From positions 1-39,243 of the forward strand of contig JBMFMB010000015.1 in the NCBI GenBank assembly GCA_049970895.1: DNA of 39,243 nt, in the 5' to 3' direction. This document shows, piece by piece, positions 18,501 to 37,336 of this stretch. How positions within the stretch are numbered: position 1 is the stretch's first letter; each line of letters starts with the position of its first letter. Made by a program: the position numbers and the translations under genes. The DNA comes from Candidatus Bathyarchaeia archaeon. Its GTDB lineage: Archaea > Thermoproteota > Bathyarchaeia > Bathyarchaeales > Bathycorpusculaceae. The notes beneath the pieces were generated by a model. The model ran no database searches and had not been told where the DNA came from. It was given only the letters and a program-made list of their open reading frames with translations.

Positions 18501-19175
18501 CGCCAAAATCCTATCAATGTTCCTCGGAGATTTTAGGAAGGAGTCAACATCGTCCACAAACACGAAGTCAAAACTTTTGCCTTTTAGGGCGTCAAAGTGG
18601 CTCATCAAAAACCTTTCGGTTGTCACGAGAATTTCAAAATCGCCATTAGCCACCCTTTCCAAGGCCGTTTTTCGTTCTTCATCGCTTAAGGCTACGTGAT
18701 AACATATTTTTCTAGGCTTTATTCCAAGCCTTTCCGAATAGGCATCTAATTTTTCTGAAACCTGCTGAACAAGGAGGGCTGTGGGCACTATTATGTAGCT
18801 TTTCTTCCCACAAACAGCAAAATAGAGGGCCGCAACAGTTCCCAAAACAGTTTTCCCAACACCAGTCGGCGCAACTATAGAAAAGTTCCGTTTTAAGAGG
18901 ATTCTCCTAGCCCAAGTCTCCTGAAGGGACCACATCCTCTGCCCAACAGCCCTCTTAAAAAACATAGAAAATTGGCTGAACTTCCTATAAAAATCGAAAA
19001 CTTCGCCGGCAAAGTACAGTCTTCCTCTTTCCTCAAGGGCTTTTAACGCTTGTTTCCACGACTTCACATCTTCAACGCTTTCAAGACAATTTTCACACAT
19101 CCCAAATTGTAGGAGACGCTCATCAGAAATTGCGCCCTTACAGTTCACGCATAACCCGTAATAAATCCCCCTCAA
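15564..19175 (-). CDS. rgy: Reverse gyrase
   Basis: N-terminal Zn finger, APTGVGKT, DDVD, RGIDLP, QASGRASR helicase-like domain fused to topo IA domain (VESPTKA, DPDIEGE, SAGRVQTP, TYHRTDS); no intein apparent. Confidence 0.97.
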   Translation of the reverse strand: MRGIYYGLCVNCKGAISDERLLQFGMCENCLESVEDVKSWKQALKALEERGRLYFAGEVFDFYRKFSQFSMFFKRAVGQRMWSLQETWARRILLKRNFSIVAPTGVGKTVLGTVAALYFAVCGKKSYIIVPTALLVQQVSEKLDAYSERLGIKPRKICYHVALSDEERKTALERVANGDFEILVTTERFLMSHFDALKGKSFDFVFVDDVDSFLKSPRNIDRILAILGFDNATITLAFQLIDLRKEANRLKRMGKSSLEVLEQMEAIRRKIEDYKSRNNIGLLIVSGATVKAKRTKRIKLFEELLRFQIGFKPEFLRNIKDFYIEANNGEIDSQVLSLIKSFGSGCLVFVPSVFGRDYAIKLSDFLNANGVRANVYVKMDEGLLGKFEKGEYDALIGVASFRSPLARGIDLPERVRYVIFTGVPRMEIRLSWEEYNPSKILTLLKNIREFLEKDQQDKASQIISSLRRIVPIDKQTLEKVKTSIETGAPLSGYEDYVKRLVLEARDFLKSAITPKVIEHITQSKEVSLKKRNGDFYLIAADPIAYVQASGRASRMFAGGITHGASFLLVDDEKAFHSLRRKLEFMLGEATWTRFTAKAAEKWFRKIDDDRAIIREIREGKIVKRVKDFIKAALLIVESPTKARTISRFFGKPYKRKIGNVTVFEVSTGEFVLNIVASMGHIYDLVVNEGFHGVKVEDGNFVPIYDFIKKCKKCGEQFTGLEFCPKCKSQEFYSKSELVGAMREIALEVNSIFIATDPDIEGEKIAYDVYCSLYPMNHKVERLEFHEITKKAFLQAIKNRREINLRMVEAQLVRRIEDRWIGFELSQKLWHRFQNYRLSAGRVQTPVLGWIIERVSESRKKKKVLSVVLSNGLRVSIENPVIQFPEQQIEKHISELKAKIVDLKTEEKGVNPPPPYTTDTLLRDASAKLGFSATKTMMIAQDLFEMGLCTYHRTDSTTVSATGIGIAKNYIQERYPSLFVPRRYFMEGAHECIRPTRALDVEQLKNLISTGILRFPKRLTNDHFQLYDLIFKRFIASQMREAKILYQQFKVLINGNQASVENPVSILSEGFNAILPIKTASIVEEGEYKLRFARLLYLPATRPFTQGEIIALMKDRGVGRPSTYAKTVATILERHYAIEKGNRLISTKLGFKVYKHLSLRFGKYTSEEATRKLESIMNMIEQGKVDYKEILKELYREILEIRKA

Positions 19176-19234
19176 GCAGCCACCACCTTAACATTTAGGC
19201 TTTTAACCCAAACATGCCAGCCATGCCTATGAAG

Positions 19235-19327
19235 AGCCTCGGGCGGGATTTGAACCCGCGACCACCGCCTATCCGTAGCCTTACAGCTTTACCAAGGCGG
19301 TGCCCCACCAGGCTAGGCTACCGAGGC
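19235..19327 (-). tRNA. tRNA-Thr(GGT) with 19-nt intron at position 37/38 (19271-19289)
   Basis: GCCTCGG/CCGAGGC-T acceptor; CCGCC-TTGGTA[AAGCTGTAAGGCTACGGAT]A-GGCGG; T-loop GTTCAAATC; CCA not encoded. Confidence 0.9.
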
Positions 19328-19436: not shown

Positions 19437-19521
19437 GCGGGGGTCGCCAAGCCTGGTCAAAGGCGCAAGGCTTAGGACCTTGTCCCGTAGGGGTTCGTGG
19501 GTTCAAATCCCACCCCCCGCA
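19437..19521 (+). tRNA. tRNA-Leu(TAG)
   Basis: GCGGGGG/CCCCCGC-A acceptor; CAAGG-CTTAGGA-CCTTG; long variable arm; TTTATAA upstream. Confidence 0.95.
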
Positions 19522-19719
19522 CTTTATTGGAACCTACAGTTCCGATACCTCCCTTAAAGCATAATAAGGTTTTATAGGTTATCTGCTTGACGAAGGAATG
19601 CCGAAATCTTCAACTGTTGAGCGGAAAGTTAGAGCTTTGAAAAGTTTGTTAATGCATGTTGATTGTCCATTCCTCTATTTCGCAAACATAAATAAGTTGC
19701 AAATAAAACCTAATGGCTA

Positions 19720-20406
19720 GTGAAAACTTTGAGAGTTAAGTTAGACCTCCATGTTCACACATGCTACTCTTATGATGGGTTAATAAAGCCAAAAGAGCTT
19801 GTCGCCTACGCCAAGAGGGTTGGTTTGGATGGAATAGCCATAACAGACCACGACAGAATAGACGGAGCCCTAAAACTGGCAAAAAATTTGGCGGACTTGT
19901 TAATTATTCCCGGCATAGAAGTCTCAAGCTTGGAAGGTCACGTAGTTGGGTTAAACATTCAAGAGGTTGTTCCTAAAAACCTAACGGCGGAGGAGACGAT
20001 AGACAGAATCCACAACCTTGGCGGTTTAGCCATAGCATGCCACCCAAGAGCCCTTTTCAAAGCAAGTTTGGGATGGAAAGTCAGCAAGAATTTTGATGCT
20101 ATAGAAGTTGTGAACGCTTCGGCATTCCCCTTCAAACGCTCCACTAGGCAAGCACTGGAAATAGCCAATAGGCTTGGAATCCCGCGGGTTGGTGGCAGCG
20201 ACGCTCATTACGCTCCGGAAATAGGCTTGGCGTACACGCTTGTGGACGCTGAACTCAGCTGCGAAGAAATTGTTAAAGCCATAAGCAAGGGACTGTGCGA
20301 ACCCTTTGGAAAAGCAATACCATTGGGAACTAGGCTGAAAAGGGAATTTCTAGCCTTAAAAAATAAATATTTTAGGAAAAACAGCGAATCATGTTCCAAT
20401 TATTAG
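19720..20406 (+). CDS. PHP-domain metal-dependent phosphoesterase
   Basis: DLHVHT, AITDHD, GIEVSS..GH, HP and GGSDAH motifs. Confidence 0.9.
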   Translation: MKTLRVKLDLHVHTCYSYDGLIKPKELVAYAKRVGLDGIAITDHDRIDGALKLAKNLADLLIIPGIEVSSLEGHVVGLNIQEVVPKNLTAEETIDRIHNLGGLAIACHPRALFKASLGWKVSKNFDAIEVVNASAFPFKRSTRQALEIANRLGIPRVGGSDAHYAPEIGLAYTLVDAELSCEEIVKAISKGLCEPFGKAIPLGTRLKREFLALKNKYFRKNSESCSNY

Positions 20407-26911: not shown

Positions 26912-27664
26912 TTAACTTAACCGTTTCGCAAGGGTTTCCTCATGCAGTTTTATAGCTGCAAATGCAAATGCCACAGCGAAGGCTATAACAGCCATAAAGT
27001 CTAGCGCCAGCGGATAAAAGCCCCTGCCTAGGAACAGCTGCCTAACCATGTCTGTGAAGTATGTTAATGGCGAAATGGAGGCTATGATTGTTCCCCATGG
27101 CGGCAGCTGGTCTACTGGTATGAAGACTCCGCTTATAAACACAAGTGGGAACTTAACCAAGGATGAGAGCATCATTGATGTGGCTGGTATGTCTGTTGGC
27201 GGGTAAGCCGAAAGCAAAACACTTAGGGCTGCAAAGCAAAGGTTTGCAACGATTAAGCCGAAAAGCAGCACTACGAAGTTTAATGGCTCAATTGCCAGCA
27301 CTAGCGTCAATGCTAAGGGAATAATTGATATTATGAGCCCGAAAAGGAAGGAGGAAAGCATATCTCCAACAATAATAGTCCATAAGGCGACTGGGCAGCA
27401 CAAAAGCCGTTCAAGGGTTTTTGAGCGGGTTTCCCAAGGCACAATGGAAGGTCCAACAGAAGTTGCTGTGAAAAAGGTTGTCATGCCAATTAATCCGGGC
27501 AAGACCTCTCTTAAGGGTATGTTTCGCCCTATAATGTAGGCTAAAGCCAAAAACAGTGGAAAAACTAGACCGAAAATTAAGACGGGCCCCTTTGAATAGT
27601 AGATTTTAATGTTCTTTTCTGCTATGACAAAGGAACGCTTAAACTGTTCTGTTAAGCGGCTCAT
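26912..27664 (-). CDS. ABC-2 type exporter permease
   Basis: Six TM segments, ETRSKTLERLL..P, FISGVFIP..LP, SPLTY motifs. Confidence 0.92.
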   Translation of the reverse strand: MSRLTEQFKRSFVIAEKNIKIYYSKGPVLIFGLVFPLFLALAYIIGRNIPLREVLPGLIGMTTFFTATSVGPSIVPWETRSKTLERLLCCPVALWTIIVGDMLSSFLFGLIISIIPLALTLVLAIEPLNFVVLLFGLIVANLCFAALSVLLSAYPPTDIPATSMMLSSLVKFPLVFISGVFIPVDQLPPWGTIIASISPLTYFTDMVRQLFLGRGFYPLALDFMAVIAFAVAFAFAAIKLHEETLAKRLS

Positions 27665-28599
27665 TGTTTTGCTGCCTCCTTTCCCTTTATGAGTTTGAGG
27701 AAAACGTCTTCAAGCGAGGGCATCATGGTGTTTAGGCTTAAAATTTTTAGGTGTTTCCTTTTGGCAAATTCCACTAGAAACTCAATCACCTCTGATGGTT
27801 GAGCCGTGTAAATGCGCATTTTATTCCCTGCAGTCACGGCCCTTGTAATGTTTGGGTTTTCCAAGAGCCCTTGCTGGTTTACTGGTTTGCTGAATGCAAC
27901 TTCAATGTATTGGAGTTCCATGCTTTCCGCTCTGAGGTTTTCTGGAGTGTCTATGGCTGCTATTCTTCCATGGTTTATTATGGCTATTCTATGGCAGAGC
28001 TGGTTGGCTTCATCCATGTTATGAGTTGAAAGAAAAACGGTTTTCCCATCCCTATTATACTCGTTTATTTTCTCCCTAAGAAGCCTTGCACTTTCCACGT
28101 CCAGCCCGGAGGTTGGCTCGTCTAAGAATAGCACTTCTGGGTCGTTAACCAGAGCCATGCATAATAGAAGCCTCTGCTTCATCCCCTTTGAGAAGGCTCT
28201 GACAAGCTTGTCCCTAACCTCATATAGCCCAAATTCTTTCAGAAGCCTTGTAGCGTTTTCCCGAAGCCTCTGCGTTGGGACACCGTAAAGCCTCCCTATT
28301 AGGACTAGGTTATCCCATGCTGAAAGGTCTACGTAGGCGTTGGAAACTTCTGGGACAACACCAATACGCTGCTTCGCCTCTACAGGGTTCTTTAAGACGT
28401 CAAATCCGGCTACGAAGGCTTCTCCTTCATCCGGCCTTAAAAGCCCTGTTAAGATTCTAATGGTTGTTGTTTTCCCAGCGCCGTTTGGTCCGAGAAATCC
28501 GAAAATTTCGCCCCTTTTAACTTTGAAGCTTACGTGGTCAACAGCGGTGACATCCTCGAAATGTTTCGTTAAATCCTTAACAGCTATTGCGTTTTCCAT
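27661..28599 (-). CDS. ABC exporter ATP-binding protein (DrrA-like)
   Basis: GPNGAGKTT, FSKGMKQR, FLDEPT, STH motifs, C-terminal SLEDVF. Confidence 0.94.
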   Translation of the reverse strand: MENAIAVKDLTKHFEDVTAVDHVSFKVKRGEIFGFLGPNGAGKTTTIRILTGLLRPDEGEAFVAGFDVLKNPVEAKQRIGVVPEVSNAYVDLSAWDNLVLIGRLYGVPTQRLRENATRLLKEFGLYEVRDKLVRAFSKGMKQRLLLCMALVNDPEVLFLDEPTSGLDVESARLLREKINEYNRDGKTVFLSTHNMDEANQLCHRIAIINHGRIAAIDTPENLRAESMELQYIEVAFSKPVNQQGLLENPNITRAVTAGNKMRIYTAQPSEVIEFLVEFAKRKHLKILSLNTMMPSLEDVFLKLIKGKEAAKQ

Positions 28600-28612
28600 G
28601 TCTACGCCACCT

Positions 28613-28948
28613 CTAGTGGGGTTCTTGTATGCCAAGCACAACCATGCGTTCTTTGCTTCTTATACCTCTAGCCACGTTTGCTGGGACAAAGACCATTTGA
28701 ACACTGGATAAGTCGGCTTTTTCCTTGCCAACAGTGAAAGTTCCAGAGCCTTCAACAACATAGAAGCACACGTCGTAGGGTTCGGGTCTGGATGGAATTT
28801 CCTGCCCAAAGTCAAGGGAGAGAAGCATAAGGTTGAAATTTCTCGTCTTTAACAAGTCTTTTTTGACGCGTCGACGCTTCTCCATAGAATCCAATAAGCC
28901 TTTATCCTGCGAATACCCTACAAGCTTTCTCAAATCTATTACATCCAT
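28613..28948 (-). CDS. Cupin-domain protein (canonical His ligands absent)
   Basis: FYVVEGSGTFTVG..VFVPANVARGI cupin spacing. Confidence 0.8.
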   Translation of the reverse strand: MDVIDLRKLVGYSQDKGLLDSMEKRRRVKKDLLKTRNFNLMLLSLDFGQEIPSRPEPYDVCFYVVEGSGTFTVGKEKADLSSVQMVFVPANVARGIRSKERMVVLGIQEPH

Positions 28949-29004
28949 TTCTCTTCCATCTTATTTTGTGATTTCGAAATTGGAAAGGGGGGATTTTGGT
29001 GGTA

Positions 29005-29202
29005 TTAGCGTTTTAGGGCTTCTAGACGCTTGTTGATTTTCTCAATTCTTTTTGTTAGGGCTTCCTTGTATTCTTCCAGCATTTTTATTTCCTCTTCAAC
29101 GTCCATTATTGGCCATGGTAAGCCCATATAGTGCTTATGTTCGTGTTCATGCTCGTGGTGGTGATGGTGCCTTTCCATTCCACAACAGCAGCATCTACAC
29201 AT
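29005..29202 (-). CDS. Small Cys/His-rich protein with C-terminal coiled coil (DUF5320-like)
   Basis: MCRCCCCG..HHHHHEHEHEHKH..EEEIKMLEEYKEAL..RIEKINKRL; GGAGGTGA RBS at 29211-29218. Confidence 0.75.
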   Translation of the reverse strand: MCRCCCCGMERHHHHHEHEHEHKHYMGLPWPIMDVEEEIKMLEEYKEALTKRIEKINKRLEALKR

Positions 29203-29599
29203 CTGGCTTTTCACCTCCCTTCCCACTTTTTTCAAAATTTTCATAATAAAATTTCACAAGATCTTCAAACAGCCTCTTCCGCTTGACTATGGATGCCAGC
29301 CCCATTTTTAGGGCTTCAACGCCTTTGCCAGTAAGCCTATAGACGCGCCTGTCTGGGCCCCCTTCAACCTTCTCCCATTGCGACTCCAGTAGGCCACGTT
29401 CTTCCATCCGTCTTAGGAGCGTGTATATGGAACCTGGCTCTAGCCTGTGGCATCCGCAGCTTCGCTCCTCAATTTCTTCTAGGAGTTGGTAGCCGTGCAT
29501 TGGCTTTTCATAAAGTACTCGCATTATTAGGAATTGTATCCATCCCCGTTCTGGGTATTCGTGCCAGCATCCGCAGTGATGCCTACTTGGTCCGCACAT
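29195..29599 (-). CDS. PadR-family transcriptional regulator with Cys/His-rich N-terminus
   Basis: PMHGYQL, GSIYTLLRRMEERGL, RRVYRLT.KG motifs. Confidence 0.92.
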   Translation of the reverse strand: MCGPSRHHCGCWHEYPERGWIQFLIMRVLYEKPMHGYQLLEEIEERSCGCHRLEPGSIYTLLRRMEERGLLESQWEKVEGGPDRRVYRLTGKGVEALKMGLASIVKRKRLFEDLVKFYYENFEKSGKGGEKPDV

Positions 29600-29649: not shown

Positions 29650-29668
29650 GAAACAATAAATTTAAATC
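29650..29668 (+). promoter_or_regulatory. BRE/TATA-like promoter element, copy 1 (GAAACAATAAATTTAAATC)
   Basis: Identical 19-mer at 30296-30314; both copies lie 32-38 bp before an ATG. Confidence 0.65.
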
Positions 29669-29700
29669 CTTAAATATGAAGATAATGCTGAGGAAAACGC

Positions 29701-29835
29701 ATGAGCGAAACAAAACAGAGTAAAATTGAATGCGATCATGAGTGGAAGGCTGAAGGGCTAACAGAAGACAAGTCCCATGTTAAGCTTGTCTGTGTGAAGT
29801 GCGGCGCAAAAAAGGAGATTGAACTGTTTCCATAA
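29701..29835 (+). CDS. 44-aa CxH...CxxC zinc-ribbon microprotein (not in ORF track)
   Basis: MSETKQSKIECDHEWKAEGLTEDKSHVKLVCVKCGAKKEIELFP; downstream of promoter copy 1, GAGG upstream. Confidence 0.7.
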   Translation: MSETKQSKIECDHEWKAEGLTEDKSHVKLVCVKCGAKKEIELFP

Positions 29836-29893
29836 GAAGCGTTGAAGTGTGCAAGCCTTAAATGGAAAAACGAAACTATTGGATGAGGAAGCC

Positions 29894-30244
29894 ATGCAGT
29901 CAAAGGAACGTTCAGGTGAAGGCGTTGTCAAAATTAGGAGTTGGGCTGAGTTTAAGCGTCTAGCCGAAAGCCTAAAGCCAAAAGCCGTAGTCTACAACAT
30001 AGAACAGAACGGCCTATCGCCAGAAAGAGAATTGACAAATTTGAGGCTTATACTGCCAGCTGGATCAGCCTACTATGTTTTGATAGATTCTCCGAGAGGC
30101 GAGGAAAGGCTTAAGGAGACTGGCATACCACTGCGGAAAGACGAGAAAGGAAACCGTTACTTGGAGGAGGAAGACGTCATAAAATTCTTGAAGGAGCAGT
30201 TTAAACGCGAAGACCTAATCATATGCTCATACTGGACCATTTAA
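29894..30244 (+). CDS. Hypothetical protein
   Basis: Protein-like ORF with GAGG RBS before ATG 29894 (frame open from 29849); no recognised motif. Confidence 0.65.
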   Translation: MQSKERSGEGVVKIRSWAEFKRLAESLKPKAVVYNIEQNGLSPERELTNLRLILPAGSAYYVLIDSPRGEERLKETGIPLRKDEKGNRYLEEEDVIKFLKEQFKREDLIICSYWTI

Positions 30245-30278
30245 TACATTAGGCTATGTCAGATTTAACGCATTTTTC

Positions 30279-30299
30279 TTTCAGAAAGGATTTCTGAAA
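30279..30299. repeat. Perfect 9-3-9 inverted repeat TTTCAGAAA-GGA-TTTCTGAAA
   Basis: Seen directly; overlaps the start of promoter copy 2 and follows a T-run. Confidence 0.6.
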
Positions 30300-30314
30300 C
30301 AATAAATTTAAATC
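30296..30314 (+). promoter_or_regulatory. BRE/TATA-like promoter element, copy 2
   Basis: Identical to 29650-29668. Confidence 0.65.
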
Positions 30315-30352
30315 TTTGAATATATGCAAATATCACCTAAAGGTGAAAGAAT

Positions 30353-30733
30353 ATGAGTGAAAGGAAATTGCCAAGATTTATAATGTGTTTCTGTACTGGT
30401 GAGTGCCCTGGATTCGCAAAGTTGGATTTGTGGAAGTTGATAAACTTTGTTAGGAACGAGCTTGACGTGGAGTACGCCATAATTCATCCACAACTATGCG
30501 TCACAGATGGAGACAACTTTTTCAGGGATTACTTGAAGGAAACGGATAAGGATAAGATATACATTATAGGCGGTTGCGACCCTAGGATGCAAAGGAAAAT
30601 GTTCAAGGATGCCTTTGCTGAGAAAGGTTTGGACTTTGATAAGCAAGTAATTTCTTTGGATTTGAGGAATATGGAAACTGCAGAGGCTATGAAGAAGGTT
30701 GAGGAAGCTGTAAGTAAGGTGGTTGGCGCATAA
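30353..30733 (+). CDS. Stand-alone HdrA N-terminal-like domain protein
   Basis: CFC..C, LC, GGCDP, LDLRN spacing parallels HdrA N-terminal CxCG..LC..AACSP..NIRE. Confidence 0.65.
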   Translation: MSERKLPRFIMCFCTGECPGFAKLDLWKLINFVRNELDVEYAIIHPQLCVTDGDNFFRDYLKETDKDKIYIIGGCDPRMQRKMFKDAFAEKGLDFDKQVISLDLRNMETAEAMKKVEEAVSKVVGA

Positions 30734-30734
30734 T

Positions 30735-31097
30735 ATGGGCGAGGAAAAGAAGGAGAAGTACCTCGCTGAGGAGCGGTACTACGGACCTAAGGTTATGGCT
30801 CCACAGAACCCCTTCGGACTGCCTAGAAAGGAGATTAAATGGTACCCGACAATTGACTATAGCAAATGCGACCCAAAAGTATGCGACTACTTCTGCGTTG
30901 ACTATTGCCACATGAGAGTTTACAAACGTGTAGGAGACAAAGTTTTTGTCGACGACCCATACAACTGTAATGTGCCGAGCCAGTCATGCGCCCCAAGATG
31001 CCCAACGGGAGCCATAAGCTTCCCATCGCAAGAGGAGTTAAAACGCCAACTTAGGGAGTTAAGAAAGAAGTATGGATACGTCACAACCAATCCGTAG
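30735..31097 (+). CDS. 4Fe-4S dicluster ferredoxin-like protein (second motif Cys>Ser)
   Basis: WYPTID..CDPKVCDYFCVDYC and CNVPSQSCAPRCP motifs. Confidence 0.8.
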   Translation: MGEEKKEKYLAEERYYGPKVMAPQNPFGLPRKEIKWYPTIDYSKCDPKVCDYFCVDYCHMRVYKRVGDKVFVDDPYNCNVPSQSCAPRCPTGAISFPSQEELKRQLRELRKKYGYVTTNP

Positions 31098-31116
31098 CAA
31101 GCAAAAACACTAGAAG

Positions 31117-31410
31117 ATGAGAGTCGTGGGCGAGGAGAAGACGTATTTAGGAATACCAAGAAAGGAGATTAAATGGTATCCATCAATTAATCATGAACTT
31201 TGCACTGGCTGCGGAATTTGTGTGGAATTCTGCCACGAACACGTTTACGAAAAGCAAGGTGACAAGGCAGTTGTTGCTAGACCTTACGATTGCCTGGTGG
31301 GCTGTGAATCATGCAGACCGCGATGCCCAGTGGGAGCTATAAGTTTCCCTTCAAGGCAGGAACTTAAACAGATGCTTAGAGAACTACGGGAGAAATACGG
31401 ATACGGTTAA
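31117..31410 (+). CDS. 2x[4Fe-4S] ferredoxin
   Basis: CTGCGICVEFC and CLVGCESCRPRCP motifs. Confidence 0.9.
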   Translation: MRVVGEEKTYLGIPRKEIKWYPSINHELCTGCGICVEFCHEHVYEKQGDKAVVARPYDCLVGCESCRPRCPVGAISFPSRQELKQMLRELREKYGYG

Positions 31411-31799
31411 GGCTTGGCAAAATCCCACTTAAGCATACTTTCTATCATTTTTGGATTTTTAATGCTGTAGTATACCCATCTGCCCTCTTTTCTGCCCTTC
31501 ACCAGTCCAGCGTTTTCCAGTATTTTCAAATGATGAGAGGCTGTTGGCTGTGTTAGGTCAAGGGCTATCATAATTTCGCAGACACACATTTCCCGTACGC
31601 CTAAAAGCTTCAAAATCCTAAGCCTCGTCGTATCAGCCAACGCCTTAAAAAGTTTACATCGCTCCTCAGCCTCATTAACCCTTGCCACATCATCAGCGAG
31701 CTGCCTCAATTCCGCCGCATACTTTTGTGGATCTTCATGAGGGCAAAGTCCGGAACTTATCAGCCGCATAAGCCTCTTATCTATTTTAGACTCAAACAT
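31407..31799 (-). CDS. ArsR/SmtB-family metalloregulator
   Basis: FKALADTTRLRIL, EMCVCEI, SHHLKIL..AGLV..RKEGRWVYY; N-terminal CPH. Confidence 0.92.
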   Translation of the reverse strand: MFESKIDKRLMRLISSGLCPHEDPQKYAAELRQLADDVARVNEAEERCKLFKALADTTRLRILKLLGVREMCVCEIMIALDLTQPTASHHLKILENAGLVKGRKEGRWVYYSIKNPKMIESMLKWDFAKP

Positions 31800-31854
31800 T
31801 TTGGTTTCCCCTAGTAATAGTGAGATTAAAATATTTAAATACATTTTGAAGCTG

Positions 31855-32436
31855 CTACTTCAGTTTAATAGGATTCATCATCCTTTCTATTTGAAACTTA
31901 TAATTGCTGTACTCCTTAGAATCTAGTGGAGGGCAATCCCCCAATGTTTTTTCGCCATTTAGGAGTTTGGCCGCAAAAGTGAAACAGCTTTGTTCACCGC
32001 ACATTTTGCAGTTCGTTTTCGGCAGAAGCTCGTAAATCTTTGTTGCCGTTAGCTCTTTCTTTGCTTGAACAGCTTCGGGATTTGGTTTTCCATGGGTTTT
32101 AAGGTATATTATGGCGCGGTTTATAAGGCGCCTAGCCTCTTCCACGAGCTGGTTTGCCTCGTTCCGGTCTTTAACATAGGTCATGGTGATTCTGCCGTTA
32201 GCAAAAATTGTTATCAAATGCTGTTGGTACATGTAGCTTAGTGCGCCAAGCTTTTCAGAGTATTTGGCGTTTGGAATAGCCAAATAAAGGATTGGCAAAA
32301 CATCCCCCAAGGGCTTGTCAGCTTGAGCCCAAAACTTTATCCTTTCAGGATCAGCCGTACAAGGCGAAATCTCCTTAATCTCAACCTTTTTAACAATGGC
32401 ATCTGCAAATAAAAGTTCCTCAAATTCACTACTCAT
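31855..32436 (-). CDS. Fe-S-binding protein with C-terminal AcsC/RnfB-type FeS domain, paralog 1
   Basis: LPKTNCKMCGEQSCFTFA..CPPL; N-terminal PC motif. Confidence 0.82.
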   Translation of the reverse strand: MSSEFEELLFADAIVKKVEIKEISPCTADPERIKFWAQADKPLGDVLPILYLAIPNAKYSEKLGALSYMYQQHLITIFANGRITMTYVKDRNEANQLVEEARRLINRAIIYLKTHGKPNPEAVQAKKELTATKIYELLPKTNCKMCGEQSCFTFAAKLLNGEKTLGDCPPLDSKEYSNYKFQIERMMNPIKLK

Positions 32437-32440
32437 CCAT

Positions 32441-32992
32441 TTACGCTCCCAGCTCCAGCTTTATTGGCTGTATCATTTTCTCTAATTGTTCTCTGTTAAC
32501 CGTGTATTTTGGTTGTTGGATTTGGGTGCATTCCTGTAGAGTTTTCTCTCCGTTTGCGAGTTTTACGGCGAAGGGGAAACATCCCTGTTCTCCGCATTCC
32601 TTGCAGTTTATTTTAGGCAGAAGCCTGTATATCTCAATGGGGTTGAGCTTTTGTTTAGCCTCTAAAAGCTTTGGGTCTGGAGAACCATGCCTCTCATAAT
32701 ACTCATAAGCCTTGTCCAGTACAACCTTCAACTTTTCTAAGAGTCTTAGAGCTATTTCCTCCCTCAAAACACAGCCTAACTTAATCTTTCCATCAGAGTA
32801 AACTGTTACAAGCTTACCGTCTATTAGGAATGTGACGGAGCCGAAGGCTTTAGCATACTGCGAATGAGGTATAGCCAGAAAAAGTATGGGAACAATCTCG
32901 CTTAGAGGCTTGTCTGCTTGGGCTGTTATCTGGAGCTTTCTAGGCTCTAATAGGCAAGGGGTCTTTTCCGTAATGCTGATTTCATAAGCCAT
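32441..32992 (-). CDS. Fe-S-binding protein with C-terminal AcsC/RnfB-type FeS domain, paralog 2
   Basis: LPKINCKECGEQGCFPFA..C; shares AQADKPL..PIL.LAIP with paralog 1. Confidence 0.82.
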   Translation of the reverse strand: MAYEISITEKTPCLLEPRKLQITAQADKPLSEIVPILFLAIPHSQYAKAFGSVTFLIDGKLVTVYSDGKIKLGCVLREEIALRLLEKLKVVLDKAYEYYERHGSPDPKLLEAKQKLNPIEIYRLLPKINCKECGEQGCFPFAVKLANGEKTLQECTQIQQPKYTVNREQLEKMIQPIKLELGA

Positions 32993-33005
32993 AATCTCAA
33001 ATCAC

Positions 33006-33398
33006 TTACAGTTTCGCTTCTTTGATGACAACTTCTGCTATTTTCTTAACATCCGCCTCATAAATGTCAAGGGTTGGCACCTTCTGCAAATACTTTGAAA
33101 TGTCAATTTCATAATCTATCCTTTTCCCAGCCTTCTCCAAGACTTTTGACGCGCATCTGTTACCGCACCCGTTTATAACAATGTTTTTCATGGCTTTCTC
33201 TGCTATTTCTAAGTGGGGTTTTGAGTTAGCCGCCACAGCTGTTGTGCAGCACATCCTCGCCTTATCAAGATTTGTCAGCAAAACGCCTACGGCGTGTCCT
33301 ATTTGGCCGACGTTGGCTGCTCCGTCGCAAACCCAGACCACATTTTCATGTTCGGCAACTTTATAGCATAATGGAAGAATTTTTGGCTGAACTGTCAT
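33006..33398 (-). CDS. DGC-domain putative zinc-binding protein (NGC variant)
   Basis: CDGAANVGQ, MCC, INGCGNRCA motifs. Confidence 0.85.
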   Translation of the reverse strand: MTVQPKILPLCYKVAEHENVVWVCDGAANVGQIGHAVGVLLTNLDKARMCCTTAVAANSKPHLEIAEKAMKNIVINGCGNRCASKVLEKAGKRIDYEIDISKYLQKVPTLDIYEADVKKIAEVVIKEAKL

Positions 33399-33400
33399 GC

Positions 33401-33844
33401 TTATTTCTCCATAATCGCCTTTATAATCAGTTCTTTAGCCTTCTTTATGTCTTCTTGGGAAATGTATTTTTCAACGCCTAAGCCCTTTCCAATGTCCGTG
33501 TGCAACGCTATCTTCTTCATGCCTATGTCCCTGGCAAGGACTATGCTTTTTGATATCTTGAAGCCAGCAGCCTCTATGGTTTTTCTGGCACATTCAAAGG
33601 GGCAACCATCCACAGTTATTATCTTCTTTGCAGCCTTAGCTTTGCCCAAGACGGGCTTAACACCAAGAGGCACCGAAGGCAAGCAGCCAATAGCCACTTT
33701 CTCCAAGCCCAACTCCCTGACAACTTCCAAACATGCCAATGCGCTTGTTAATCCGGTGTTAGATAAGCCGCCAAAACAAGAGAACAATATGTTCTCATGG
33801 GTCGGCATGCCTTCCTGCCATTCTCCCTCCCTAGACATTAACAT
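33401..33844 (-). CDS. DGC-domain putative zinc-binding protein
   Basis: CFGGLSNTG, GCL, VDGCPFECA motifs. Confidence 0.85.
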   Translation of the reverse strand: MLMSREGEWQEGMPTHENILFSCFGGLSNTGLTSALACLEVVRELGLEKVAIGCLPSVPLGVKPVLGKAKAAKKIITVDGCPFECARKTIEAAGFKISKSIVLARDIGMKKIALHTDIGKGLGVEKYISQEDIKKAKELIIKAIMEK

Positions 33845-33854
33845 TCAGCACCTC

Positions 33855-34115
33855 CTACTGCACACCTGCCTCCCTTAAGGCTTCTTTGAAGGTTTCCTCG
33901 CTTGGGCAGACGCCTATGATGCGGATGTCCTTGTCGATTACGACGGCGGGGCTTGCGTTTATGCCATATTCGCTTAGCTTCTGGTTCACTCCACGATAAA
34001 TTTCAATTTCAATTTTGTCCTTATACTCCTCTCTTATCTTCTCTATCAATTTTAGCAGCAGTCTTCCACCCGAGCATGGCGGCTCCGAAGTGAAAACTTC
34101 AACTTTTACTGGCAT
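33855..34115 (-). CDS. Thioredoxin-like protein, monothiol (CSGG)
   Basis: VEVFTSEPPCSGG, YGINASPAVVI, GVCPS. Confidence 0.8.
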   Translation of the reverse strand: MPVKVEVFTSEPPCSGGRLLLKLIEKIREEYKDKIEIEIYRGVNQKLSEYGINASPAVVIDKDIRIIGVCPSEETFKEALREAGVQ

Positions 34116-34377
34116 GTTTAAACCTCATTTCTTTAAGCGCTGCTTCAATGGTTTGCATGCTTGGGCAGACGCCCATAATCTTTATTTTGCCTTCGTTGAA
34201 GACTATGGCTGGAACCACTGTTATGCCATACTTTCCAAACTCTTCGCATGGTCCAACATGCTTAATCACTTCCACCCTGTCGCCATACTTCGCCTTAATC
34301 AGGTCCGCGTACTCCAAGAGTTTTAGGCAACCGGCACACGGCGGCTCAGCCGTAAAAGTTTCAACCTTCACAACCAT
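34099..34377 (-). CDS. Thioredoxin-like protein (CAGC)
   Basis: VETFTAEPPCAGC, YGITVVPAIV, GVCPS. Confidence 0.85.
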   Translation of the reverse strand: MVVKVETFTAEPPCAGCLKLLEYADLIKAKYGDRVEVIKHVGPCEEFGKYGITVVPAIVFNEGKIKIMGVCPSMQTIEAALKEMRFKHASKS

Positions 34378-34388
34378 TTAGCAACACC

Positions 34389-34712
34389 TTAAACTATTTG
34401 CTCAACAACATGCTTTACAAGTGCATCCACGAAATTGACATCAACAGCATCAATCACCTTGAAAACGGCTGGATTAGTCACAGAGTAAAAGCGCCTGTTC
34501 CCTTCCCTTCTGTCTCTGACAAGCCCACATCTTTTAAGAATGGCAAGATGCCTAGAGACCAGCGGTTGGGTTATCCCCACATAGGGGACGATTTCGCAGA
34601 CGCATCTTTCGCCACCACGTAAAAATTCGAGAATTTTAAGCCTCACCGGGTCGGCTAGCGCATTAAAGACTTTAGCCCTAAACTTTTCCATGTTTTTCAT
34701 TTTTGGATGCAC
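34389..34712 (-). CDS. ArsR/SmtB-family metalloregulator
   Basis: FNALADPVRLKIL, ERCVCEI, SRHLAIL..GLV..RREG..FY; start could be 34700. Confidence 0.92.
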   Translation of the reverse strand: MHPKMKNMEKFRAKVFNALADPVRLKILEFLRGGERCVCEIVPYVGITQPLVSRHLAILKRCGLVRDRREGNRRFYSVTNPAVFKVIDAVDVNFVDALVKHVVEQIV

Positions 34713-34727
34713 GTTTAAAGCAAAGTC

Positions 34728-34753
34728 TATAACAATATTTAAATATTGCTATA
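34728..34753. promoter_or_regulatory. 26-bp near-perfect palindrome centred on a bidirectional TATA (candidate ArsR operator)
   Basis: TATAACAATATTTAAATATTGCTATA with perfect 16-bp core at 34733-34748, between divergent arsR and trx-permease operons. Confidence 0.7.
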
Positions 34754-34783
34754 CTCCTTCACATTCTCCAGGGTGAAAACCAC

Positions 34784-35056
34784 ATGAAAGAAGTAAAAGT
34801 CGAGGTTATTGGGACCGAACCGCCTTGCATGCGTTGCCAAGCGACAAGAAAAGCCGTGGAAAAAGCTGCTGTGAAGCTTAAGCAAGCTGGTGTCATGGTG
34901 AACATTGAAAAGGCGAACATAATGTCGAAGGAGGTTGTCCAAAAATACGGCGTTTTGGTTTCGCCAGCCGTAGCCATAAACAACACGGTCAAAATCATGG
35001 GGCGGGTTCCAAGCCCAGAGGAAGTTGAAAAGCTGATTATGGAAGAAGCCAAATAG
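34784..35056 (+). CDS. Small redox-active disulfide (thioredoxin-like) protein (CMRC)
   Basis: VEVIGTEPPCMRC, KYGVLVSPAVAIN..GRVPS. Confidence 0.88.
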   Translation: MKEVKVEVIGTEPPCMRCQATRKAVEKAAVKLKQAGVMVNIEKANIMSKEVVQKYGVLVSPAVAINNTVKIMGRVPSPEEVEKLIMEEAK

Positions 35057-35071
35057 AAGGCGAAAAAGCAT

Positions 35072-36106
35072 ATGGAGGAAAAAACTAAGGGGGCTATCAG
35101 AGCTGGCGTAATCCTAGCCTTCGTAGCTGTTGTAATAGGGCTTTTAATCTACAGCCGCATAGTGGCTTATTCAATGGCGCCGCAATCAAAACCCATTGAT
35201 TTACGCCCGCTCCCATTATGGGAGATTCCCATAGTCTACCTCATCGACTACTTCAGCCATGGAACAATATGCCTACTCTTCGCCTTCACAGTCGCAGGCC
35301 TAATCTACGAGTTTGTGCCAAAAGAGGCTATCACAAAATACATGGGAAGCAGCAAAGCAGTAGGCTATGCGCTAGCCCTTGGGATGGCACCCTTCCTAAC
35401 AGTTTGCTCATGCACAATGGTCCCCCTATTCGGCGGAGTTCTATACGCAGGAGCAGGAATTGGTCCAGCAATAACATTCCTTCTAATGGCGCCAGCGGCA
35501 AACATTCTAACAATTCTATTAACTGGCGAGATGATTTCTTGGGAGGTTGCCGGCATCCGCATAATAGCATCAGCAACAACCGCACTGGTTGCTGGCATAA
35601 TAATTTCAAAGACACCGTGGGGCAAAGCCGTCGAAAAAGAACACCAAATAGCCAATGCAGCTTCAGCCAAAGTGGAAATTGTTAAACCCCCATTGGACGA
35701 GAGACTTTGGGCTGCTCTGAAATTTGCGGGATACTTGGCAAAACAGATCCTCCCGTTCTTCATAATTGGCTTGATTGCAGTAAGCTATGTTGAAGCATTC
35801 CTACCAGAAGACATTGTCGGAACATACTTAACGGGAGTCACCGGAATACTAATTGCCTCGGTGCTCGGCGGACCGCTCTACACTCCAACGCTTGTTGAAG
35901 TTGTTTTGGGCAAAGCCATGTGGGATTTAGGCATGTCAAAAGGTGCACTTTTAAGCTGGCTTATGGGACAGCCCTACGACGTAGCCAACGCCATGGCTGT
36001 TTCAAGAATAGCCAAGTGGAAAGTTGTTCTAACATACATGTTTATAGCTTGGGCTGGAAGCGTAGCCTTTGGACTGCTGTACGGCGTGTTAAGCGGGTCG
36101 CTGTAG
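35072..36106 (+). CDS. ArsP/DUF318-family permease
   Basis: ~8-9 TM segments with internal two-fold repeat, VCSCTMVP and FLLMAP motifs; ArsR/thioredoxin context. Confidence 0.85.
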   Translation: MEEKTKGAIRAGVILAFVAVVIGLLIYSRIVAYSMAPQSKPIDLRPLPLWEIPIVYLIDYFSHGTICLLFAFTVAGLIYEFVPKEAITKYMGSSKAVGYALALGMAPFLTVCSCTMVPLFGGVLYAGAGIGPAITFLLMAPAANILTILLTGEMISWEVAGIRIIASATTALVAGIIISKTPWGKAVEKEHQIANAASAKVEIVKPPLDERLWAALKFAGYLAKQILPFFIIGLIAVSYVEAFLPEDIVGTYLTGVTGILIASVLGGPLYTPTLVEVVLGKAMWDLGMSKGALLSWLMGQPYDVANAMAVSRIAKWKVVLTYMFIAWAGSVAFGLLYGVLSGSL

Positions 36107-36109
36107 GCC

Positions 36110-36310
36110 ATGACAGGCGAAAACGATTTCGGAATTAAGCGTCCATGCCCATGCGCCCAAGAGGCGGTGGCCGCCTTAAAGACTATTCAGCCAATAAAAG
36201 AGGGCATGCTAAAAGAAGTGCGGTGCAAGGGCTGCGGTAAAACTTTCCTAACAAACTTTGACACGGAATACTGTTATGACTGCCGCAAAAAACTGAAAAT
36301 GGAAGTGTGA
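36110..36310 (+). CDS. Small CPC + CxxC-x12-CxxC zinc-finger protein
   Basis: PCPCAQ, CKGC-x12-CYDC; tight operon spacing. Confidence 0.75.
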   Translation: MTGENDFGIKRPCPCAQEAVAALKTIQPIKEGMLKEVRCKGCGKTFLTNFDTEYCYDCRKKLKMEV

Positions 36311-36317
36311 AAAACCC

Positions 36318-36674
36318 ATGGCTATGGCTAGGGCTTGCACCCCATGGTATCCAACAATTTTCCCGGAGAAATGCGACGGCTGTGCACCTTTCGGAAAGCC
36401 CCGCTGCGTGGAATACTGCCCAAACGGGGTATTCGCCTTCATAGACGGAAAAGCTGTTGTGGCTAACCCCCACAAATGTGTTAGTGGCTGCACCGCATGC
36501 GAACCCCTGTGCCACAAAAAAGCCATAACCTTCCCAAAACCCCAATACGCCACATCACCGCTGAAAACCGAAGAAAAGGGTTTACTAAGGAAAACCACAT
36601 GCAAGAAATGCGGCAAAGTCTTCTGGACAAACCGTGAAAGCGACTTATGCTTCGACTGCGAAAGCAAACGCTAG
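36318..36674 (+). CDS. 2x[4Fe-4S] ferredoxin fused to CxxC-x12-CxxC zinc finger
   Basis: WYPTI..CDGC..CVEYCP, CVSGCTACEPLC, then CKKC-x12-CFDC. Confidence 0.85.
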   Translation: MAMARACTPWYPTIFPEKCDGCAPFGKPRCVEYCPNGVFAFIDGKAVVANPHKCVSGCTACEPLCHKKAITFPKPQYATSPLKTEEKGLLRKTTCKKCGKVFWTNRESDLCFDCESKR

Positions 36675-36682
36675 CGTGGTAA

Positions 36683-37106
36683 CTATATCTCTGGCAGCCT
36701 TTTTATGTCCTCAAATTTTTTGAAAATGCTTGTCAAAAGTGTAAATTTCACTTATTCCATGAGCTTTCACAAGCAAATAAGCCAAGGCATCGTTGGCGCT
36801 TATCTCCTTCTCCCTCGCTAAAAGCAAGGCTGCCTCATAATCTCTTACGCCAACCAAACAAACCTTCACATTTTCACTGGTTACAACTTAAGCCAGAAAG
36901 CCCAAAGATTCCTTAACGCCAAGTCCAGTCTCCACTATATTTACAACCTCTGAGAGGTGAACAACTGTGGTGGCAACCTCCTCGCTACCCTCTATCGTTT
37001 TCACAATGGCTTTGGCCTCATCCTTAATTCTCCGCTCATCTTTAGTCGGAGGTCTGCGGGGAATTAGGTAGGCATGAAGAAAAACATTCGAGTCTACAAA
37101 CTTCAA
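36683..37106 (-). pseudogene. VapC/PIN toxin pseudogene
   Basis: KFVDSNVF..SEV..; in-frame TAA at 36888-36890, then ANDALAY..EIYTFDKHF and a terminal frameshift. Confidence 0.82.
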
Positions 37107-37336
37107 TGTTCCTAAGCTCCGACAAAGTCTTCTTAAGAGCATGAGAAGTTTACATACTCAGAAACCTTAATTGAATCGAACAAAAGCGGAGGGTGGAAGC
37201 GCTTCCACAGAAACAATCTCAATCATGTTTCCCCGCTTTATCAAAGCCGATTTACGAGACTTGAAACTCTTCCTTCAACGCGCCGGAATCGAAACTCTTC
37301 CCTGAGAATCCATCTCCTTAACAACAATTCCACCAT
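37100..37336 (-). pseudogene. AbrB/MazE-type antitoxin pseudogene
   Basis: KEMDSQGRVSIPAR* (in-frame TGA) ..MIEIVSV with frameshifts; directly upstream of the PIN gene. Confidence 0.72.

Follow-up and report, generated by a model that had tools for sequence, protein, structure and literature searches.

A candidate arsenic-type stress island of interchangeable thiol and iron–sulfur modules in Bathyarchaeia

The window analyzed here, a stretch of 39,243 nucleotides (nt) that constitutes one entire contig (JBMFMB010000015.1) of a Candidatus Bathyarchaeia archaeon assembly (GCA_049970895.1; 1.34 Mb, 97% complete), harbors between positions 29701 and 36674 a 7 kb island of 17 small open reading frames (ORFs), g01 to g17, which is most readily interpreted as an arsenic-type stress island under putative ArsR/SmtB repression. 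The genes fall into three transcription blocks, g01–g05 on the plus strand, g06–g13 on the minus strand, and g14–g17 on the plus strand. Five sequencing runs contain the locus, all of them DNA runs from hot-spring metagenomes, with no RNA run listed. An earlier prediction, made from the nucleotide sequence and referred to below as the original prediction, had described 17 small and mostly cysteine (Cys)-rich genes; all of these ORFs lie where it placed them, and their products contain 3.73% Cys as compared to 1.39% in a genome baseline of 1270 crude ORFs of at least 100 amino acids (aa), with 15 of the 17 proteins reaching at least 2.2%. Its family assignments were borne out by Pfam and NCBIfam scans, which took in the 17 island genes and the 15 flanking ORFs from about position 20389 onward, the assignment of an HdrA N-terminal (HdrA-N)-like domain being weak yet consistent. 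The features of the island are the following.

29650..29677, plus strand: 28-nt promoter box upstream of g01, with a TATA-like core TTTAAAT; 26 of 28 positions identical to the box at 30296-30323
29701..29835, plus strand: g01, Cys/His microprotein of 44 aa (C..H...CxxC); no family match; 82–86% identical in L008, L011, and L012
29849..30244, plus strand: g02, 131 aa, family unassigned; 74–91% identical in 7 of 20 loci, adjoining the ArsR145 homologue
30296..30323, plus strand: repeat of the 28-nt promoter box, ahead of g03
30353..30733, plus strand: g03, homologue of the HdrA N-terminal Fe–S domain, 126 aa; NCBIfam HdrA E 2.3e-4, 9sfi_A E 3.2e-4
30723..31097, plus strand: g04, ferredoxin-like, 124 aa, seven irregularly spaced Cys; 58% identical to g05, weak NCBIfam matches only
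31117..31410, plus strand: g05, 2x[4Fe-4S]-type ferredoxin, 97 aa; Fer4 36.1 bits
31407..31799, minus strand: g06, ArsR/SmtB repressor "ArsR145" with CVC in helix 3; HTH_5 66.5 bits; the open frame reaches 31844
31855..32436, minus strand: g07, TATA-binding protein (TBP) domain plus [4Fe-4S] domain (AlphaFold model), 193 aa; PF04060 50.5 bits
32441..32992, minus strand: g08, paralogue of g07, 183 aa, 41% identical to it; PF04060 47.0 bits
33006..33398, minus strand: g09, DGC-domain protein, 130 aa; PF08859 78.6 bits
33401..33844, minus strand: g10, DGC-domain paralogue, 147 aa, 31% identical to g09; PF08859 64.0 bits
33855..34115, minus strand: g11, Thioredoxin_3 protein, 86 aa, monothiol CSGG plus a GVCPS loop; PF13192 31.6 bits
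34099..34377, minus strand: g12, Thioredoxin_3 protein, 92 aa, CAGC; PF13192 33.3 bits
34389..34712, minus strand: g13, ArsR/SmtB repressor "ArsR107" with CVC in helix 3; HTH_5 67.4 bits, NF033788 99.3 bits
34728..34753, no strand: 26-nt palindrome in the divergent promoter of g13 and g14, its 14-nt core AATATTTAAATATT being perfect; overlaps the TATA box and is a candidate operator for ArsR
34784..35056, plus strand: g14, Thioredoxin_3 protein (MTH895/ArsE-like), 90 aa, CMRC; PF13192 52.6 bits, TIGR00412 50.3 bits
35072..36106, plus strand: g15, ArsP_1-family permease, 344 aa, CSC motif; PF03773 151.4 bits
36110..36310, plus strand: g16, Zn-ribbon microprotein, 66 aa; 42% identical over 48 aa to the g17 C-terminus; kept in 6 of 20 loci
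36318..36674, plus strand: g17, ferredoxin-like domain fused to a Zn ribbon, 118 aa; weak Fer4_7 match, E 6e-4

Three of the genes, g01, g02, and g16, match no family in Pfam or NCBIfam, and g02 found nothing in a PDB sequence search or in the Atlas either. Although they lack a family, the previously unassigned g02 and the Zn-ribbon microproteins g01 and g16 are conserved in relatives, being kept in 7, 3, and 6 of 20 related loci (numbered with L throughout), respectively. A genome search found no paralogue of the island DGC, Thioredoxin_3, ArsP, g02, g03, or Zn-ribbon genes elsewhere in the genome.

Both repressors belong to the ArsR/SmtB family, as judged by PF01022 (cut-off 22 bits, exceeded about threefold by g06 and g13) and by NF033788, for which g06 reaches 106.3 bits and g13 the value listed above (cut-off 55). 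The CVC pair in helix 3, which corresponds to the As(III) site of R773 ArsR and had been claimed for both proteins, is present within EMCVCEI in g06 and ERCVCEI in g13 and is conserved in an alignment of g06 orthologues, in which GLCPxEDP and ExxCK are likewise conserved and a Cys-bearing N-terminal arm is formed. Judged from these orthologues, the true start of g06 is most likely M16 (31799). The third Cys of R773 ArsR is absent from g06 and g13; two Cys residues suffice in ArsR according to the portion of a preprint drawn on here (10.1101/2022.10.17.512643). In the spacer between the divergently transcribed genes g13 and g14, the 14-nt palindrome core is kept in 9 of 9 orthologous spacers, and it is kept also in L018 and L019, where the adjoining proteins are 62–72% identical and the remaining spacer has diverged. 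The core occurs in a single perfect copy in the 1.34-Mb genome, namely in the g13/g14 spacer. Two one-mismatch copies were considered as a further regulon and rejected because of their location at unrelated places, one ahead of two consecutive ORFs of 81 and 141 aa (by eye, an antitoxin/toxin pair) and the other within an ORF that by eye is aminotransferase-like. The palindrome and the 28-nt boxes are read as candidate operators overlapping TATA boxes, and the presence of two ArsR family members together with a conserved palindrome in the divergent promoter supports the ArsR-type control that had been proposed for the cluster.

The assignment of g15 as an ArsP/DUF318 permease, a family named for the organoarsenical exporter ArsP, holds, its PF03773 score exceeding the cut-off of 32.3 bits almost fivefold and the membrane-embedded Cys pair being present within the sequence TVCSCTM; the gene occurs in a single copy in the genome. 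The three proteins announced as thioredoxin-like all belong to the Thioredoxin_3 family and score 50.3 (g14), 27.5, and 26.3 bits with TIGR00412, as compared to a cut-off of 62. The CxxC site is found in g14 (CMRC) and g12 (CAGC); the monothiol protein g11 has CSGG in its place. In the related loci, the g14 homologue always lies directly upstream of the permease gene.

The two minus-strand proteins g07 and g08 had been described as FeS-domain proteins. The Fe–S domain is real, both proteins scoring at least twice the PF04060 cut-off of 23 bits, but a mere FeS protein is not an adequate description since the N-terminal half is a TBP domain. In g07, a single TBP domain (approximately residues 16–115) is followed by a [4Fe-4S] domain (approximately residues 130–175) of the type found in the corrinoid iron–sulfur protein (CFeSP) and in RnfB. 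The AlphaFold (AF2) model of g07 has a predicted local distance difference test (pLDDT) score of 96.6 and a predicted template modeling (pTM) score of 0.90, and when it was compared to known structures with VIA-align the top four matches were TBP chains with Z-scores of 12.0, 11.3, 10.5, and 9.6, the next family reaching at most 7.0. The best superposition, on 1mp9_B (Z 12.0), gave a root-mean-square deviation of 2.0 over 95 residues. Foldseek likewise retrieved TBP (22% identity over 78 columns) and matched the C-terminal part to the CFeSP Fe–S domain; the Pfam TBP model scored 17.6 bits, below its cut-off of 22.9. Because of these TBP fold matches and the CFeSP match, g07 and g08 each comprise one TBP repeat and one [4Fe-4S] domain: the TBP fold is present in g07, but the two tandem repeats that form the DNA saddle are not, their place being taken by one repeat, a helix, and the Fe–S domain. 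In an alignment of 50 sequences, C143, C146, C151, and C168 of g07 are invariant and C26, located within a PCxAD motif, is nearly so.

The g07 family comprises 794 representatives at E<=1e-3, of which 169 remain at E<=1e-10, and several members carry additional parts. One relative (P0251) shows an extra N-terminal region with a weak winged-helix match (HTH_20 E 0.0086; winged helix-turn-helix models E 0.009–0.18), another (P0276) an extra N-terminal region with a weak match to a Se/S carrier (E 0.0027), and a third (P0337) carries a fused class-V aminotransferase of the type to which cysteine desulfurases belong (330.9 bits), while some possess about 200 additional N-terminal aa of no recognized family. 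The label "ArsR family metal-binding transcriptional regulator" given to g07 relatives by the Joint Genome Institute (JGI) could not be confirmed, the fused relatives being devoid of a clear ArsR domain. The fusions to winged-helix, cysteine desulfurase, and Se/S-carrier parts suggest that a role of g07 and g08 as a sensor or as an Fe–S/sulfur relay fits at least as well as a catalytic role. A complex prediction for g07 with g06 (score 0.00, mark 0.32) was uninformative either way. A literature search found no characterization of the TBP/[4Fe-4S] family.

The second pair of minus-strand proteins, g09 and g10, exceeds the PF08859 (DGC) cut-off of 27 bits more than twofold. The AF2 model of g09 (pLDDT 91.5) displays a flavodoxin-like three-layer fold, and an alignment revealed three invariant Cys residues (C24, C78, and C82) and two nearly invariant ones (C50 and C51, at least 90%). 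In the model, the conserved Cys residues come after beta-strands 1 to 3 and are therefore expected to lie together along the sheet's C-terminal edge, the usual active-site position of flavodoxin-like enzymes. Kinship with pI258 ArsC was considered and not adopted, as the corresponding VIA-align Z-score of 5.6 lies within the range of generic fold matches. For g09, no PDB sequence match was obtained and the Atlas returned only "DGC"; a literature search found no characterization of DGC (PF08859) proteins.

Candidates for electron input are encoded in the first block. The match of g03 to HdrA covers profile positions 11–93 in NCBIfam and about residues 2–94 in 9sfi_A, with the Cys residues in register; with full-length HdrA, g03 scores 19.1 bits, below the cut-off of 1400, and it is thus not a full flavin adenine dinucleotide (FAD)/Fe–S protein. 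The ferredoxin-like proteins g04, g05, and g17 are mutually related, g05 and g17 being 39% and g04 and g17 33% identical. The best NCBIfam match of g05 is HgcB (39.5 bits, below the cut-off of 99), g04 has no Pfam match at E<=0.01, and the Fer4-type match of g17 is weak and below cut-offs. Although they are encoded on opposite strands, g03, g05, g09, and g10 lie within 3.5 kb and constitute an HdrA-N/ferredoxin/DGC triad.

The recurrence of this triad was assessed within 1.5 kb of DGC genes at 29 Thermoproteota loci, the studied locus excluded, and in 19 Acidobacteriota genomes. An HdrA-N-like gene accompanies DGC at 11 of the 29 Thermoproteota loci, in 10 cases together with a g05-like ferredoxin gene, and the same combination is found in 4 of the 19 Acidobacteriota genomes. 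Five Thermoproteota loci feature a transporter of the SBF/Acr3 superfamily (PF01758 107.6 bits), one features thioredoxin and ArsP fragments, and one a PadR gene with an ABC gene. In the Acidobacteriota operon of L102 (188-3253), genes for a CMD/AhpD-like protein, a Thioredoxin_3 protein (81.5 bits), an HdrA-N-like protein, a ferredoxin, a fusion of DGC and the lipoyl-carrier-like GCV_H (57.7 and 108 bits), and two further DGC proteins follow one another. A fusion of HdrA-N, ferredoxin, and DGC, suspected from long open frames, was rejected since these are separate genes, the actual fusion being that of DGC and GCV_H; none of the 17 island proteins matches GCV_H in Pfam, be it free or fused to DGC. 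Farther along from the L102 operon, an ArsC-like gene of the low-molecular-weight phosphatase (LMWP) type is found in L077. Two Thermoproteota loci, L047 (428-2606) and L051 (681-2894), display a unit composed of a DUF169 gene (144.6 bits by Pfam in L047, its L051 counterpart recognized by eye), a DGC gene 84–86% identical to g09, and a gene for an SBF/Acr3-superfamily transporter.

The conservation of the neighborhood, which the original prediction had asked about, is borne out by 20 related loci retrieved through g07, the closest of which derive from metagenome-assembled genomes (MAGs) titled Bathyarchaeia. A core of g07, ArsR107, the thioredoxin-like protein g14 (Trx90), and ArsP is kept in 9 of them (L002, L008, L009, L011, L012, L013, L015, L018, and L019), and the same families recur in Thermoproteota and Acidobacteriota. 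Six of the 20 loci (L003, L005, L006, L010, L016, and L021) end at a contig edge beside g07. L007 possesses ArsR107, three thioredoxin genes, and one DGC gene, its only permease being 25% identical and lying at a distance of 8 kb; in L004 and L014, g07 is kept together with ArsR145, a ferredoxin, and an HdrA-N-like gene; L017 features an orphan g07 beside CobN and topoisomerase VI genes; and L020 is a bacterial locus (Acidobacteriota). The DGC pair and g08 are present in L002, which lacks Trx92 (g12) and Trx86 (g11); L008–L015 contain Trx92, Trx86, and the ferredoxin and lack DGC, and the studied window combines both sets. A g17 homologue lies downstream of the permease gene in L002, L008, L009, L011–L013, L015, and L019. 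Judged by gene content, the island has a modular build and is conserved among Bathyarchaeia. Its distribution is patchy: DGC was detected in 49 of the 301 Thermoproteota genomes sampled and, within the archaeon's own family, in 1 of 16 further genomes; g07 matches, counted as listed rows covering both domains, were found in at least 39 of the 201 Bathyarchaeia sampled and in 1 of 27 further genomes of that family. This patchiness, together with the 77–91% identity of DGC130 (g09) between families, points to an accessory and transferable island. In L004 and L007, from MAGs titled Methanomethylicia and Nezhaarchaeota, g07 is 85–87% identical to the Bathyarchaeia gene, which could be due to gene transfer or to mis-binning.

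A link to arsenic genes emerges from the bacterial homologues. Two-domain members of the g07 family occur in 3 of 301 sampled Acidobacteriota genomes. In L020, the g07 homologue follows a CVC ArsR gene, and the genes divergent to it are arsM (354.9 bits against a cut-off of 263), an arsC of the LMWP type, and acr3 (468.2 bits against 282.8); in L074 (Acidobacteriota) a g07-like gene, ArsR, a split Acr3 gene (63% identical), and a further ArsR gene follow one another. In L075 (8099-9796, Acidobacteriota), a family member lies, by eye, directly downstream of a cysteine desulfurase-like gene; the g07 family therefore has both ars and sulfur/Fe–S contexts. DGC occurs in 19 of 301 sampled Acidobacteriota genomes, in 15 of which at least one of ArsR, ArsP, Thioredoxin_3, HdrA-N plus ferredoxin, ArsC/LMWP, and Acr3 lies within 1.5 kb; ArsP-like neighbors are found in 6 of the 19 and none of these neighbors in 4. 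ArsC/LMWP- or Acr3-like genes likewise adjoin DGC in 6 of the 19 genomes, and DGC is therefore not a simple replacement for these proteins. Because of the homologue neighborhoods in archaea and Acidobacteriota, the island can be linked to arsenic genes in two domains of life, and genomic context lends good support to the metalloid link.

The island itself encodes none of the classical enzymes. As originally stated, arsC, arsM, acr3, arsB, mer, and hgcA genes are absent from the 17 island genes and from the scanned flanking ORFs, and the flanks of 19 archaeal loci contain no Acr3, ArsM, ArsC, or ArsB. The more general statement that a catalytic detoxification enzyme is lacking is valid for the island but not for the genome, in which an ArsB-like gene (at C6; PF02040 246 bits, NCBIfam ArsB 358 bits, below 457) and an ArsC-like LMWP gene (at C11; 91.8 bits, below 174.3) occur elsewhere below the curated cut-offs, both devoid of ars neighbors. 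Across the genome, Acr3 yielded nothing above its cut-off (best 19.2 bits), ArsM at best 31.5 bits (cut-off 263), ArsA partial P-loop matches only, HgcA at best 87 bits (cut-off 275) at an apparent CFeSP gene, and MerA at best 112.5 bits (cut-off 454), while MerB gave no match, the MerB control staying silent too.

The reading preferred here, to which we assign a probability of roughly 60%, is that of an arsenic-type stress island, repressed by ArsR/SmtB proteins and assembled from interchangeable modules, whose ligand would be arsenic or another thiol-reactive metalloid. It builds on the gene families, their folds, the conservation of the candidate operator, and the co-occurrence of the genes among themselves and with ars genes. 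In the scheme that follows, the ligand (arsenic), the direction in which electrons move, and all biochemical roles are putative. First, a trivalent metalloid bound to the CVC sites would take the repressors off the palindromic operator overlapping the TATA box. The effector would be the permease with its thioredoxin partner, both encoded in an export arm (g14–g17) that comprises the ArsE-like CxxC thioredoxin, the CSC-containing ArsP-family permease, the Zn-ribbon microprotein, and the ferredoxin/Zn-ribbon protein. The divergent arm (g13–g06) would supply ArsR107, two Thioredoxin_3 proteins, two DGC proteins, two TBP/[4Fe-4S] proteins, and ArsR145. From an electron-input arm (g01–g05) with the HdrA-N-like Fe–S protein and two ferredoxin-like proteins, ferredoxin electrons would pass via g03 to the Cys cluster of the DGC proteins, which might be ferredoxin-driven dithiol/disulfide reductases or carriers of metalloid thiolates. 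DGC would then keep the thiols of the Thioredoxin_3 proteins and the permease reduced and hand the trivalent species over to the permease, which would export it. The TBP/Fe–S proteins could act as Fe–S-based sensors of redox or Fe–S state alongside the repressors or as a second point of electron entry. The linear route originally proposed, from ferredoxin via an FeS protein and DGC/thioredoxin thiols to the permease, has gene adjacency as its sole support, and for the proposed dealkylation of an (organo)metalloid no support of any kind was found.

Several points weigh against an arsenic-type island. The locus is known from sequence alone; the structural matches of DGC are generic (best Z 7.8), and its cofactor may be Zn or Fe–S; g04 is devoid of a regular ferredoxin motif; the SBF-type transporters encoded by archaeal DGC loci reach 88.8 bits with the Acr3 model as compared to a cut-off of 282.8; 11 of the 29 Thermoproteota DGC loci contain no ars or cluster family recognized by the query set; and the g07 family is found in a second context too, adjoining cysteine desulfurase genes or fused to them. 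In addition, CVC sites occur in Cd, Pb, and Zn sensors too, ArsR145 displays a four-Cys layout in which two conserved Cys of the N-terminal arm add to the CVC pair, and the nearest named NCBIfam family of g15 is SO_0444 Cu/Zn efflux (86.1 bits). The last two findings would suit an island for the efflux or buffering of thiophilic divalent metals (Cd, Zn, Cu, Hg, Pb) rather than arsenic, in which the permease would export a metal thiolate and the small Cys-rich proteins would serve as chaperones, as would the "zinc-binding" label that sources attach to DGC proteins and the PadR gene and His/Cys-rich gene directly upstream of the island, which are syntenic in L003, L005, L007, and L057. The SO_0444 score, however, is far below its cut-off of 300, the nameable neighbors of the same families are arsM, arsC, and acr3 and not cad, czc, cop, or mer genes, MerA stays below its cut-off and MerB unmatched (with its control silent), and a homologous bacterial operon of Pseudodesulfovibrio mercurii ND132 is arsenic-responsive according to the part of its description used here (10.1101/2022.10.17.512643). 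Divalent metals as the substrate are considered unlikely, if the best placed of the alternatives.

Somewhat less probable is a response to reactive sulfur or selenium species or to general thiol-redox stress, in which the ArsR proteins would sense persulfides or oxidation, the TBP/Fe–S, DGC, and thioredoxin-like proteins would repair or relay sulfur and Fe–S clusters, and the permease would export sulfur or selenium species. The cysteine desulfurase-type fusion of P0337, the arrangement in L075, the weak Se/S-carrier match of a g07 relative, and the DGC::GCV_H fusion and CMD/AhpD-like gene of L102 are all compatible with such a role, as are weak NCBIfam matches to the BigR, TsoR, TsoX, and SaoT families. 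The last-mentioned matches all remain below cut-offs, however, and the named neighbors are arsenic genes. BigR-type sensors possess two distant Cys residues, unlike the CVC pair in helix 3 of the island repressors. Least likely of all is the stronger claim of the original prediction, that DGC or TBP/Fe–S proteins act as catalysts and transform an (organo)metalloid prior to export, either by reducing pentavalent or thiolated arsenicals or by cleaving C–As bonds anaerobically: the absence of ArsC, ArsM, and ArsI from the island in Pfam and NCBIfam scans, the low-potential electron input that accompanies DGC in two domains of life, the modeled position of the DGC Cys cluster, and pI258 ArsC among the DGC fold matches (only Z 5.6) speak for catalysis, but no catalytic motif, specific structural relative, or pointer to C–As cleavage was found, arsenate reduction requires no low-potential donor, and DGC adjoins ArsC/LMWP- or Acr3-like genes in the Acidobacteriota genomes mentioned above.

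A combined reading can be formulated for the two accessory sets, which as a whole is rather improbable. The DGC proteins would be the catalytic ends of a ferredoxin/HdrA-N chain acting on arsenic–sulfur species, on pentavalent arsenic species (methylated or thiolated), or on dithiols blocked by arsenic, and at the same time the TBP/[4Fe-4S] proteins would be Fe–S-containing transcription co-sensors whose dimers recognize the palindromic TATA-like operator. If this were true, the DGC chain would be the equivalent, in a strict anaerobe, of ArsC coupled to thioredoxin or glutaredoxin, and the half-TBP would be a regulator that responds to redox state or to metalloids.

What is known of arsenic resistance stems largely from aerobes and facultative bacteria, in which ArsC is coupled to thioredoxin or glutaredoxin and the pumps are ArsB, Acr3, and ArsP. 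At the level of gene content, what is new here is two widespread accessory sets, HdrA-N/ferredoxin/DGC and TBP/[4Fe-4S], for which no description was found in the literature searched. The island and the matching gene sets in Thermoproteota and Acidobacteriota show that anaerobes add to ArsR-controlled loci a recurrent set of proteins consisting of ferredoxins, HdrA-N-like proteins, DGC proteins, extra thioredoxin-like proteins, and half-TBP/[4Fe-4S] proteins. Should these accessories supply low-potential reductant or carry the metalloid, a gap would be filled regarding the handling of arsenic by strict anaerobes in sulfidic arsenic-rich waters, and a first function would be assigned to DGC (PF08859) and to the TBP/Fe–S family. 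A TBP domain that resides outside basal transcription, near a repressor gene and a palindromic TATA-like candidate operator, moreover bears on the evolution of archaeal transcription factors.

The scanned flanks of the island consist of housekeeping genes (SfsA, PEPCK, a radical-SAM enzyme, FtsZ, and aspartate dehydrogenase), with the exception of the block directly upstream. This block (26912-29599, minus strand) comprises five genes, encoding PadR (77.9 bits), a His/Cys-rich protein of 79 aa (CCCC plus a His run; weak DUF5320 match), a cupin, an ABC ATPase, and an ABC-2 permease. Its PadR and His/Cys-rich genes accompany g07 or DGC in the four syntenic loci given above, and the block may be part of a larger metal-stress island. 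Downstream (36711-37142, minus strand), two ORFs of 52 and 84 aa appear by eye to be the halves of a PIN-domain (VapC-like) gene, and the pair is kept together in L002 and L011. Farther away, the window contains an ORF of 1203 aa (15564-19175, minus strand), a tRNA-Thr(GGT) gene of 94 nt (19234-19327), a length sufficient for an intron, and a tRNA-Leu(TAG) gene of 86 nt (19437-19522).

Several known systems share parts of the island. The N-terminal Fe–S domain of HdrA (PDB 9sfi, 7bkb, 5odc) is matched by g03 with its Cys residues in register, whereas g03 represents this domain alone, devoid of an FAD domain, HdrB, and HdrC. TBP and the N-terminal [4Fe-4S] domain of the CFeSP large subunit (PDB 2ycl, 4djd) are matched by the N- and C-terminal domains of g07, respectively, which in contrast to TBP possesses one repeat rather than two and is extended by the Fe–S domain. 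Monopartite TBP-domain proteins have been described in Thermococcales (Brindefalk et al. 2013, PMC3597702); the available portion of that article does not mention a TBP domain combined with an Fe–S domain. Classical ars operons resemble the island in their CVC ArsR and ArsP-family permease, and homologues of the accessory proteins occur within certified ars loci; unlike these operons, the island is devoid of arsC, arsM, acr3, and arsB, the ArsB- and ArsC-like genes of the genome being unlinked to it. The selenocysteine-assisted organometallic (SAO) locus of Clostridioides difficile and other anaerobes, for which its authors argue for metabolism and not resistance (Haft and Gwadz, 10.1101/2022.07.06.499078), pairs, in the portion of the text used here, a thioredoxin-like protein with a CSC-bearing efflux protein of the ArsP superfamily and repeats Cys pairs across small proteins, as does the island. 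The MerB-like SaoL, the ABC importer, and the selenoproteins given there have no counterpart in the island, in which g15 scores 73.8 bits with SaoE (cut-off 325) and SaoT is matched with 18 bits (cut-off 65). The closest resemblance is to operon C of P. mercurii ND132 (DND132_2311-2314), which according to the available part of the report contains ArsR5, ArsP, ArsE (PF13192), and DGC (PF08859) and was up-regulated with arsenic in RNA-seq (10.1101/2022.10.17.512643). The notion of an undescribed system thus has to be given up for the ArsR–ArsP–thioredoxin (ArsE)–DGC core, described in a preprint as arsenic-induced in ND132, and is upheld, within the literature searched, for the accessory genes. 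As far as operon C is described there, the same four families form an ArsR-headed unit in both organisms, but the island features two repressors, three Thioredoxin_3 paralogues, and two DGC proteins, and it extends beyond operon C by its TBP/[4Fe-4S], HdrA-N-like, ferredoxin, and Zn-ribbon proteins.

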